Below are positions 33,907 through 38,439 of a stretch of DNA of 64,000 nt, in pieces. Below the pieces are notes generated by a model, which worked only from the letters and a program-made list of their open reading frames with translations, was not told where the DNA came from and did no database searches. Source of the DNA: Podarcis gaigeae (taxonomy: Eukaryota). The stretch's first letter is position 1; each line of letters starts with the position of its first letter. The DNA lies in the NCBI GenBank assembly GCA_964106915.2, contig OZ066918.1; one strand, 5' to 3'. The translations under genes were made by a program, and so were the position numbers.

Positions 33907-34865
33907 TAGTTTGAAAGCTGCAGCACTAATGCTGGAATCTTGCTTCTCGCAATGACCTTGAGGAGGGATAGTGTTGTATTTTGCCTGTTTATTTTGACAT
34001 CCATTGCCCTGAGCTCTTTTAAAGGGGGGAAGATCTATAAATATTCTGAGTCAATGAAAATAATAATAAAATAAAATAAGATGCCTTTAGCCCTTTTAAG
34101 ATCATGAGAAAGAGAGCACCAGGAATGCAACAGCACAACAGTGTCCTGCTTCTCTGGTTGTATGGCAACTGCGTGTGTCCTGCCCTCCCTCTTTTCTGTC
34201 ATTAAAGCTACACAAGAGTAAGATGAGAAAGAATTTAAGAAGAGCCCTGCTAGATCAGACAAAAGCCGCATCTCCTCCATCATCCTGTACTCAGGGTGAC
34301 CCACCAGCTGCCCACAAGCAGGATATGAGCACAACAGCTGGTGCTCTTCAGGAACTGATATTCAGAAGCATATTGCCATTGATCCTGGAGGTAAGGATTA
34401 GAGGCCACTGATAGCCCCCATCCTTTAAAAGCCATCCTGGTTGTCCACCATAACCACATCTTGCAGGAGCAAATTCTTTTGTTTAACTAGGCTTAACTAG
34501 TCAGCTTGTGCATCTTGGTTCAGAGACTTCTAGTGCTGGATTAAACCCTGTGGAGGTCCCAAGGCAGACAAAATCTTGGGGCAGGGGGCTGCCAAATTAT
34601 CTCCTGATATATTTTTGTAATTTTCTGTCAATATCAAATCAATATTCTTTGGGGTTTTTTGTCACAGGGCCCCTAAAATGCTGGTGCCTACTCTGGCAAC
34701 CCGGCACTGGAGGCTTCTAACATCAATACATTCCAACTCTCCTCCAAATGCAGTACCATGGCAGCTGCAACTGCAATTCTTAGCACTCTTTGACTCTATT
34801 CCTCTGACTTTATGCCCTTCATACACCTCACACTATTGAACATCAAGAAGAGTGAACCTCTAGAC

Positions 34866-37657
34866 CAGTGTTTCCCAACCTTTTTTGGGCAAAGGCACAC
34901 TTGTTTCATGAAAAAAATCTCGAGGCACACCACCATTAGAAAATGTTTAAAAAATTAACTCTGTGCCTATATTGACTATATATAAAGTAACTCTCTTTAA
35001 TAGGAATCAAATAAACACAAAGAAAGTATTTTATAATTACTTTATTATGAAATAGTAAGTAAACAGAAATATGAAAAATTATAAAATACTTTATTCAGTG
35101 CGCAACCTGGGCCTGTTTGGCTGAACACAAAGCTGATATTCTGGCTGGAATCGAAGAAAGACACACACGTAGCTCTTCGTCAACAGCTCTCAGTCTCTCT
35201 CTGTATTTAGTTTTTATAGCAATCATGCTTGAAAAGCTCAACTCACAGAGATATGTAGTGGAAAATGGGAGCAATGTCAAAATAGCTTTGTTTGCCAGAA
35301 GGGGGAACTCCTTGGCAGTTTCCAACCAAAAACTGTCCAAAGGTAGATCAGCAAATCTTAGCTTGAAACCACGATTTTGTCTCAGTTCAGTTAGTTCCTC
35401 CTGCTCCTGTAAAGTCATGTCCTTTCCACCAACTGATGCTGAGCTATAAGGGTCCCTAACCCAGTCAAGGCATTCAGTGGAGACTGAAGAGAAATAAAAT
35501 GACAACTTCCCCTCGAGAGTTTTAAAATGTTTACCTATTATCTCACACAGTGCAGCAGTGTGAACACCTTGCCATTGCTTGGTGAGTGTGAACATTTCAA
35601 GATTGCCACTTTCCACGTGTTGATGCCAGAGTTGCACCTTTGAACGGAATCCATTTATTTTATCTGTACTTGTAAGCAGGTTTTCATTTCGGCCTTGCAT
35701 TCGTGTGTTCAGTTCATTCAGATGATGAAATATATCTGCCAGGTATGCCAGCCTTGCACACCACTCATCACTTGCAAGCAGCTTTGCGTAATCTGACCTC
35801 TCATTTGTCAGAAACACTTTAAGTTCCTCCCGCAGCTCATACACACGAACCAAGACCTTGCCACGCGACAACCACCGGACCTCCATATGAAACAGCAAGG
35901 TTTTATGCTTCGCTCCCATCTCCTCACACAAAGCTGCAAATATGCGACTTTTCACGGGTCGTGACTTTACAAAGTTTACCATGCGCACAACATCATCCAA
36001 CACATGAACTAGGTCTGCTGGTAAAGTCTTGGCTACGAGGGCCTCACGGTGCAAAAAACAATGCGTAACAATCACATCTGGATTTCTTTCCTTCACTCTG
36101 CTTACAAAGCCTTTGGTGTGTCCGACCATGGCTGCAGCTCCATCGGTGCAGACACTTGTGCAGTTTTCCCACTTAAGTCCTCCTTGTTCAAGGTATTCTG
36201 ATGTGACCCGAAAAATTTCTTCTCCTGTTGCTTTTTCTGGCAATGCCTTGCAGAAAAAGAAGTTTTCTCTAATTGCATCACCATCAACAAAACGCACATT
36301 GGCCAAGAGTTGAGCATGTCCACTGATATCAGTAGACTCGTCAAGTTGTAATGCAAATTTCTCACTGCTATGGATCTTTTCCAAAACCACACTTTCAATG
36401 TCTGCAGACATGTCATTAATACGTCTGGAAATTGTGTTGTTTGAGAGAGGGACTTTGGCTATTTCCTTAGCTGCTTCAGGTCCGAGCATCTCCTCTACAA
36501 TAGCTTTGTAGGCGGGAAGTATTAATGTCTCTGCCACAGTGTGCGACTTTTTTGACTTGGCTATAAGTTCAGCAACGTGATAGCTAGCTTTAAGACCTCT
36601 TTCATTTACCTTTGAGGTTTGTCTCATGAAAATTGCCTGTTTCTCCGTGTTTTCACGCAGGCGAACAAAATAGTCCGCATTCTTGTTTTGAAGCGAAGGG
36701 TGTTTCGTTTGGAGATGGCGTTTAAGTTTGCTTGGGACCATAGCACTGTTAGCTAGCTTTTCACCACACACCACACACAGTGGAGTTGGTTGGTTTGCAT
36801 CTCCGGTGAAAGTAAATCCAAATGAAATATAGCTTTCGCTATATTGCCTTGTGCCAGAGGATTTGCTTGAGCTAACCATCTTTGCTTTCTTTTCATGCCC
36901 ACTCATACTTGGACTCTCATCTGGCTCCAAATTTTGTTCAGAGTCCAGTTCTTTTCTTTTCAAAAACTTTTCCATCACTGCAGTATCCGGCCATCCAATT
37001 GCCACTGACCATCGGATACAGACCCCTTTTTTTTACAGCACAGCTCGCACAAATGTACACGGAACACCCTTTTCGAATTAAAACACACAGTCTCACGAGA
37101 GCAAGGAGCAGCGATTTTATATTTTACGAAAAGAAGTCGCTAGTCCTCATGGTGACAGGGTGGAAAATATTTAAAAGCAGAACCACCTTGAGGAAGGTGG
37201 AGCCATATCACATCCCGGCAGGAGGCCTAAATTGGTGGAACGCTCAGGCCCCGCCTATTCAAAGAGGACTATTAATTTGGAGAGCTGCTATCTTCCAAAC
37301 TGTGAGACGATGAGGCAAAAGGGGAGCCCTGAATGGAACTTTGCATTTTTGTCTCAACGCCGGTCTCGCGCTGCCGCTTCCCGCGCTCTCAAGGACCCGG
37401 GAGGAGGAAGGCGTGAAGGGAATCCCGAAGGCGCGAAAACCTCGCGCATGCGCAGGCCTTCCGCCTGCGACAGCCCAGTAGGCCGGCCGAAGCGAGCGGT
37501 GATGGGATGTGGGAGGGAGCTCGCTCGCCGCCCCGTGTGTGCTCGCCGCCGCCGCCCCGCCTCTCGCCGCCCGACTCGCCCGCCTCCCTCCCACGGCACA
37601 CCAGGCAACGTCTCACGGCACACTAGTGTGCCGCGGAACACCGGTTGGGAAACACTG
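34866..37657 (-). mobile_element. Full-length autonomous hAT transposon, Buster/Charlie group
   Basis: Perfect 15-bp TIRs CAGTGTTTCCCAACC (34866-34880, 37643-37657), 8-bp TSD CTCTAGAC (34858-34865, 37658-37665) with the central TA typical of Buster, GGCACAC subterminal repeats, and an internal transposase ORF. Confidence 0.97.
35095..36975 (-). CDS. hAT (Buster/ZBED5-like) transposase, 626 aa from the first ATG (MEKFLKRK...)
   Basis: BED zinc finger CVVC...[10 protein letters not shown]; catalytic [16 protein letters not shown] and CELSFS (DDE); CxxH (HCFLH); RW motif (VRWLSRG). No stops. The ORF-track start at 37005 is a GTG. Confidence 0.95.
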
Positions 37658-38439
37658 CTCTAGACTGCACACGGCTCTCTCATTTCCTCAGTTGTGGAAG
37701 GTCAGCTTCTGGGCAGAAAACCTGGGAAGGTGACCACTGTGCAAGGCTGGACCAAAGGGCCATATCATACACCGCCATTGTTTAAGTGGACAGCTAAGAT
37801 ACGGTACACATACATTTGAATATTTAAAGCCGTAACAACAAGCATGCATGGGCATACTTGTATTTACAAATACACTTAGCACACATAGACACAACGCTTG
37901 CTAGGGAACCAGATTGGCAGCCTCTGTTTGCAAAACAGCTCTGAGTTAAAATCGTAATTCTGTCACTTTTACAAGATGGAAGTATAACTCCTCCTGTACA
38001 TTAACTGCATGGTTATTTATTAAGCAGGGAGGCATATATGAACGTTTAATTGTTATATATTTACGTACTGGTGTACAAAAACCCATTTATATAACAGTGA
38101 TGCAGCACCAGTACATTGTGTTTTATTTTATTGCTATGGCTAGTGGCTGATTCAAATAAAGATTCTTCTGATCTGATCTGCAACACCAGCTTCTGTCAGT
38201 CAACCAAAGCACATGTAAAATACTGTCACGAAGCATTTTATAGCTACTTCCCTCATCCGGAGATTCAAAGTACTTTAAGGAAAATAACAGTGGCTGCAAC
38301 TGGGAGTTCTGGTGACACGAGAATTGCTGGAACACTCCACTGGTAATCTATTGAGGCTTCTGGCCTTTATGGCTGGATAGGCTTGAAAGTGTGAGTGATC
38401 CCTGCTGAAAAACCAGAAGTCAGAGAAGAAGCTGGTTGC

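Follow-up and report, generated by a model that had tools for sequence, protein, structure and literature searches.

Probable capture of host DNA from upstream of POU3F4 and TFDP1 by a transposase-coding Buster element in the lizard Podarcis gaigeae

Among the Pack-TIRs described in animals, four cases (1.4%) are multicopy, including Pack-hAT-N8_XT, which carries the CAPSL 5′ UTR and is present in three copies, and the microhomology at Pack-TIR breakpoints has a median length of 2 bp (Tan et al. 2021, PMC8277862). HelibatN3 Helitrons of bats carry the promoter of NUBPL (Grabundzija et al. 2016, PMC4778049). Buster hATs have been reported to generate 8-bp TSDs with the consensus nnnTAnnn (PMC3517528) and to have undergone horizontal transfer across phyla (PMC12637253). 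How horizontally transferred DNA transposons are transcribed in new hosts is an open question; the "blurry" promoters of Tc1/mariner elements are weak, AT-rich and work across taxa, and the hAT element hobo is described as having no such promoter (PMC6446368). In the open papers searched, we found neither a description of TFDP1 capture nor a case of an autonomous TIR element that uses a captured promoter.

Here, we analyzed a 64,000-nt stretch of contig OZ066918.1 from Podarcis gaigeae, hereafter the window. It contains a Buster hAT element of 2,792 bp at 34866-37657, in which both ends and the ORF are intact. The features of the element are as follows.

34858..34865 and 37658..37665, no strand: TSD CTCTAGAC, 8 bp, with TA at positions 4-5
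34866..34880, no strand: 3′ terminal inverted repeat (TIR), 15 bp
35095..36975, minus strand: uninterrupted transposase ORF of 626 aa with D212, D278, E578, CxxH and RW motifs
36976..36992, minus strand: remnant of an earlier leader; homology ends at 36992 against subfamily B and at 36987 against older copies and a contig of another organism
36990..37354, no strand: DNA probably captured from upstream of POU3F4; TIR-free donor at G000:C33:29710672-29711033
37115-37121, minus strand: TATA-like box TATAAAA, inside the POU3F4-upstream piece and identical in the donor
37353..37542, plus strand: piece probably captured from the TFDP1 CpG island; donor at G000:C8:29368178-29368384
37430-37439, no strand: E2F consensus site GGCGCGAAAA, identical in the TFDP1 donor
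37443-37454, no strand: NRF1 consensus site CGCGCATGCGCA, with 11 of 12 bases as in the TFDP1 donor
37543..37590, no strand: GC-rich stretch with three GC boxes, absent from the TFDP1 donor and from older copies
37589..37657, no strand: native 5′ end, with GGCACAC subterminal repeats and a 15-bp TIR

The native 5′ end is common to all subfamilies; its GGCACAC repeats lie at 37595 and 37617, with an inverted copy at 37626, and the ends of distant Buster relatives are 71-89% identical to those of the window element. Among 30 loci of the window element's own subfamily, designated A, both ends were visible in 18, of which 17 had a TSD, all with TA at positions 4-5 (17/17), and TSDs were likewise found in sister families (9/9, 4/5 and 18/18). 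In the alignment of 18 transposases, D212, D278, H309, R367 and W368 were invariant and E578 was present in 17; we take these residues to be the DDE, CxxH and RW motif positions of the transposase. Pfam returned only a sub-threshold Spin-doc zinc finger, and searches of PDB sequences with the window transposase and with its alignment gave no match, while homologous proteins carry the annotations ZBED5-like or SCAND3-like. On its TSD, TIR and subterminal repeats and its DDE, CxxH and RW motifs, the element would be classified as a hAT of the Buster family. It resembles the Buster hATs described in PMC12637253 in its short TIRs, nnnTAnnn TSD, ZBED5/SCAND3-like transposase and patchy, near-identical distribution.

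Proteins 92-98% identical to the transposase occur in lacertids, a gecko, a snake, several frogs, a salamander, a caecilian and two spiders, and such identity across lizards, snake, amphibians and spiders points to horizontal transfer. The preliminary description of this DNA had proposed comparing the element with its closest relatives; the closest one from another organism, a contig of 2,171 nt, matched 34866-36987 at about 95% and carried a different leader from 36987 onward. Older copies in the same genome (94-97% identical) break at 36987 and 37589, with a different leader between these points. In metagenome and prokaryote-genome contigs we detected 83 distant Buster loci (at best 71-73% amino acid identity), in which alignment at the 5′ end was limited to the first 45-69 bp. 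The NRF1 core was present in none, and an E2F-like word in four, of the 46 distant relatives with at least 150 bp of upstream sequence, and three metagenome relatives had short AT-rich leaders of 275-292 bp that contained no CpG island. The viral contigs searched yielded no relative of the element. RNA-contig runs of other organisms had no cover over 37035-37604 in 4 of 4 cases, a result that is by itself no evidence. Some relatives of the Buster transposase lay within prokaryotic MAG contigs (L141-L143), likely as eukaryotic contamination.

The leader of the window element is of mixed composition. The segment 37350-37590 has 73% GC and a CpG o/e of 1.11, against 0.29 for the window, and qualifies as a CpG island (GC >55%, o/e >0.65, >200 bp), whereas 37140-37349 has only 48% GC and an o/e of 0.34. 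This agrees with the preliminary description, which had a GC/CpG-rich segment starting at about 37350 and had also placed the E2F and NRF1 sites, the minus-strand TATAAAA and the GGCACAC repeats where we find them. An E2F site arose in 7.5% of 20,000 dinucleotide shuffles of 37350-37590, an NRF1 core in 0.8% and both within 30 bp in 0.03%, for motifs that were picked after being seen. The TATAAAA lies 140 bp before the ATG at 36975 and is not unusual by itself, with 22 matches in the window. The leader holds seven upstream ATGs, and its translation matched none of the 172 proteins compared.

A TIR-free donor at a gene, the search for which had been proposed with the first description, was found in the CpG island 5′ of TFDP1, where the start site is inferred. 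Positions 37353-37542 align to G000:C8:29368178-29368384 with 8 mismatches and 2 gaps in 207 columns; both motifs fall within the alignment. The donor island spans 600 bp (66% GC, o/e 0.98), and no TIR or other element sequence occurs in 40 kb. Downstream on the plus strand follow a CRE, a splice donor near 29368454 and a start exon at 29370698, and the exons there match the E2F/DP winged helix, with DP-2 as the nearest solved relative; the N-terminus is presumably of the TFDP1 type. Upstream lie exons for a Na/H-exchanger domain, which we take to be a feature of TMCO3. In the human gene order TMCO3 is followed by TFDP1 (PMC2815550), and by synteny the DP-family gene is most plausibly TFDP1. 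Its first exon and start site are predicted from sequence, and the donor is likely a promoter. The sense direction of TFDP1 in the captured piece runs toward the TIR, with the transposase on the divergent side, so only divergent activity could reach the transposase. Separately, minus-strand acceptor and donor signals at G000:C8:29367930-29368010 (L241) suggest a divergent non-coding exon upstream of TFDP1, and it is this acceptor that subfamily B captured.

The adjoining piece of the leader has a different source. Positions 36990-37354 align to G000:C33:29710672-29711033 at 94.3% identity, with 14 mismatches in 367 columns. This second donor, which is free of TIR and ORF and has no other element sequence in 40 kb, lies about 8.65 kb upstream of the start codon of a single-exon POU/homeobox ORF, for which the exact protein is annotated POU3F4. 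The TATA (37115) and CCAAT (37231) words both fall within this piece. The two donor pieces meet at a 2-bp microhomology (37353-37354), and the junction on the ORF side has a 3-bp microhomology (36990-36992). Rfam gave no match on 60 kb around both donors, and no source of 37543-37590 was found by pattern search. The preliminary description had given the segment as 37140..37590 and had proposed that a host promoter was acquired. The segment does consist of acquired DNA, but its extent is wider (36990-37542, possibly to 37590), with the TATA box included, and it comes from two different donors. The second claim, acquisition of host promoter DNA, is supported by a donor that lies 5′ of a DP-family gene, has no TIR and holds both motifs, and by the different leader of the closest relative from another organism. 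The description did not foresee that the leader is a mosaic, that its TATA box derives from POU3F4-upstream DNA and that the TFDP1 piece is directed away from the transposase.

Three members of the family each contain a piece of the TFDP1 island, and these pieces are adjacent and do not overlap: 29367986-8175 in subfamily B, 29368178-8384 in subfamily A and 29368399-8518 in family C. The DNA therefore passed from host to element. The reverse would be that the GC-rich segment belonged to the horizontally transferred element from the start, or that the element gave it to the TFDP1 locus; the presence of the segment in all subfamily A copies would fit this. Against it, the donor lacks TIR and other element sequence over 40 kb and carries on unbroken into DNA that other family members contain, including the splice donor, and the segment is absent from the older copies, the 95% relative and the 83 distant relatives; this reading is largely refuted and we regard it as highly improbable. 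Capture of host DNA by the element is, conversely, close to certain. The POU3F4-upstream and TFDP1-island pieces were likely copied into the leader by template switching during the repair of a broken element. Since subfamilies A and B and a Pack family all have TFDP1 DNA in common, its capture was likely the first, and the divergence from the donors (1.7-6%) leaves the order of captures unfixed.

The A leader occurs at about 30 loci in this genome, most 97-99% identical and many internally deleted, and the copies lie at distinct TSDs, that is, they spread by transposition. The ORF is whole in 3 of 8 full-length copies examined and in the window copy. Exact E2F-NRF1 pairs number 27 genome-wide, of which 19 belong to subfamily A, 7 to subfamily B and 1 to the donor. 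Two TIR-free donors, junction microhomology and distinct TSDs are the marks of a Pack-TIR, here a multicopy one. As in the multicopy Pack-TIRs reported in PMC8277862, the host DNA is interchromosomal, the microhomology short, the cargo GC-rich and the TSDs distinct, and template switching followed by transposition fits the models given there. Among the examples in that paper, hAT-N8_XT (by its name) and FB4 are non-autonomous, whereas in the window element the cargo replaces the leader and the transposase is intact. Because the transposase ORF is kept (in the window copy, 3/8 A copies and 5/8 B copies), the element falls outside the non-autonomous definition of Pack-TIRs, and it works like a Pack-TIR in transposase-coding form. 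Compared with the three-copy example of that paper, subfamily A has about 30 loci and several donors; copy numbers in the sister families are 8, 9 and at least 39. The family shows serial capture from multiple donors and has amplified the captured DNA to tens of copies, far more than in the multicopy vertebrate Pack-TIR cases compared (PMC8277862), and DNA of the likely TFDP1 promoter and first exon has been scattered over the lizard genome.

Subfamily B is represented by a 4,172-bp element on G000:C30 (L196:508-4679) and by L198, L199, L200 and L202. Its ORF of 626 aa is 98.8% identical to that of the window element, and 5 of 8 copies are intact and flanked by TSDs. B departs from the common sequence at 36992; its leader of 1,712 nt is made of host pieces, it has an inner TIR, and its 3′ end contains an insertion of 340 bp. 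Close to the 5′ end, B keeps an E2F/NRF1 module of 28 bp, and the element carries two E2F sites and an NRF1 site. All 8 B loci have retained NRF1 together with one or more E2F sites, and likewise a splice donor captured from host DNA (position 456 of the leader, counted from the 5′ TIR) and an acceptor derived from TFDP1 (1575). Splicing between these sites would join the kept module to the ORF, and the inner TIR and every one of the 20 ATGs 3′ of the NRF1 site would be lost. The predicted spliced leader of 313 nt is ATG-free, as were 2.2% of base shuffles, for a start chosen by hand.

Family C (L243:1431-2424) is a non-autonomous element of 994 bp with 120 bp of TFDP1 DNA at 98%, comprising a CRE, a likely first exon and a splice donor, followed by further GC-rich DNA with a second CRE. 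It has at least 39 copies (39 matches besides the donor, with 40 of 45 candidates scored), a 16-copy variant carries a shorter TFDP1 piece plus intron DNA, and each RNA run contained 47-188 reads across the family C junction. A Pack element of 1,607 bp (L145:1178-2784), present in nine copies (L162-L170), contains a coding fragment of a CDK5 activator (donor L172, Pfam CDK5_activator), which is presumably CDK5R2, a piece of 555 bp from donor L171 that includes a splice donor, and the TFDP1 module in repeated copies that have lost the E2F site. Like HelibatN3 (PMC4778049), the Buster family of the window element is a vertebrate DNA transposon that captured and amplified host promoter DNA, with a likely first exon and splice donor in family C; HelibatN3 differs in being rolling-circle and non-autonomous, and its promoter is described as driving neighboring host genes, not its own transposase.

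Whether the captured leader works as a promoter was assessed from CpG decay and from RNA. Across 30 copies, CpG transitions were found at 60 of 1595 sites in the TFDP1 piece (3.8%) and 34 of 1144 in the ORF (3.0%; Fisher p=0.29), with the TFDP1 donor locus (L059) left out and mutations in common counted per copy; in the 11 long copies the counts were 22/576 and 24/812 (p=0.45). Non-CpG C/G transitions amounted to 0.33% in the 30 copies, and the CpG rate was about ten times higher. Decay at the rate of the ORF suggests that the island is not protected in the germline, as expected for methylated DNA, and methylation is the probable cause. NRF1 binding is sensitive to methylation.

The RNA comprised four raw lizard runs (6-12% of each examined, tissue not stated) from animals other than the source of the genome; they belong to the organism whose DNA runs contained the leader best. 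The transposase ORF was covered, with a sense-strand depth of 22-86 in two stranded runs, and at position 35782, 769 of 773 reads did not carry the subfamily A allele. Reads leaving the ORF at 36992 entered the B-type leader (58 and 34 reads), which places the ORF-proximal junction of subfamily B in RNA. Over 37077-37274, three of the four runs had a depth of 0 and the remaining one a depth of 2.5-3.2. In the motif region (37374-37472) reads were found on both strands, and donor and copies are indistinguishable there by short reads. In one run, 42 reads exited at 37353 with a mixed consensus like the upstream donor DNA; they may come from a divergent TFDP1 transcript that is spliced, or from another subfamily. 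In these runs the transposase is transcribed from family members other than A and almost never through the A leader. The expressed copies differ at many sites from the genome copies examined, so these runs bear on other animals' copies and are no test of the window copy or of the germline.

We favor the reading, with a probability of roughly 0.6, that the captured leader in subfamily A is a mostly methylated, near-silent passenger of host DNA, and that A is mobilized mainly by the transposase of sister copies, such as those of B. The preliminary description had proposed proliferative or germline expression and had suggested RNA as a check; with CpG decay equal to that of the ORF, and with RNA that traced the ORF to other family members and was near zero over the A leader in four runs from other animals, such expression is not supported so far. 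Three points weigh against a silent passenger: the earlier leader is nearly all lost, yet about 30 young loci exist and the ORF is whole in several; E2F and NRF1 are enriched in bidirectional promoters (PMC10887517) and reads cover both strands of the motif region; and the RNA runs represent the copies of other animals. Given the young loci and kept ORFs, expression could come from a few master copies that are unmethylated.

In a second reading, the captured TFDP1 promoter fires divergently and drives the A transposase in proliferating or germ cells, with copy gain in S phase. Cut-and-paste elements such as Ac gain copies by moving in S phase, and human TFDP1 is reportedly an E2F target, as named in a paper title. 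Both E2F and NRF1 sites are kept in the two young subfamilies with intact ORFs, and the non-coding Pack family lost E2F; the reads on both strands of the motif region also speak for this reading. Since hAT promoters can be host-restricted, as in hobo (PMC6446368), a local promoter could be of advantage to a hAT that arrived by horizontal transfer. The window element, like the blurry promoters of that paper, bears on how a horizontally transferred element is transcribed in a new host; its candidate solution, as opposed to theirs, is a stolen host CpG-island promoter. However, the piece is oriented opposite to the TFDP1 sense direction, its CpGs decay at the ORF rate, the leader is nearly absent from RNA and holds the upstream ATGs, and 6 substitutions in 190 bp give no sign of selection on the motifs. 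We consider divergent firing in subfamily A rather unlikely.

In a third reading, the transposase gained a promoter by chance from the POU3F4-upstream piece, through the TATA (37115) and CCAAT (37231) words there and a GC-rich box close by, the TFDP1 piece being at most an upstream activator. The spacing of the TATA box to the ATG and, in one run, a minus-strand-only depth of 2.5-4 over 36978-37274 speak for it, but the donor is remote from the POU3F4 start codon, TATAAAA is frequent in the window, depth was 0 in three runs, and in the run with minus-strand depth 39 of 39 reads lacked the A allele at 35782, so the few leader reads may stem from the donor locus or from deleted copies. We judge this reading quite improbable.

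Subfamily B extends the question to the whole family. It is possible, if doubtful, that after horizontal arrival in lacertids the Buster family rebuilt its transposase promoter for cycling cells from the E2F/NRF1 core of TFDP1, a gene whose product is itself the partner of E2F, together with the B splice sites that would skip the ATGs. Captured TFDP1 DNA could tie jumping to dividing cells, though the switch of the window copy looks mostly silent in the data examined. One family in one genome has at least three different leaders, with host donors identified and young intact copies; with several leaders of known origin and intact copies, theft of a cell-cycle promoter for the element's own transposase becomes directly testable.

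Some further arrangements were observed. An intact copy 99.5% identical to the window copy (L204, G000:C9:3503718) lies about 130 kb from it in the opposite orientation; the two have private alleles in common, and a local hop is possible. Chimeric derivatives (L151-L159) have hAT ends joined to a GC-rich tandem-repeat element, presumably mariner-like, with a breakpoint in common at window position 37481. At about 2333-2884, the window also contains a different small element, probably the other capture case mentioned in the preliminary description, with repeated ATCTAGGA on its flanks and a GC-rich interior.
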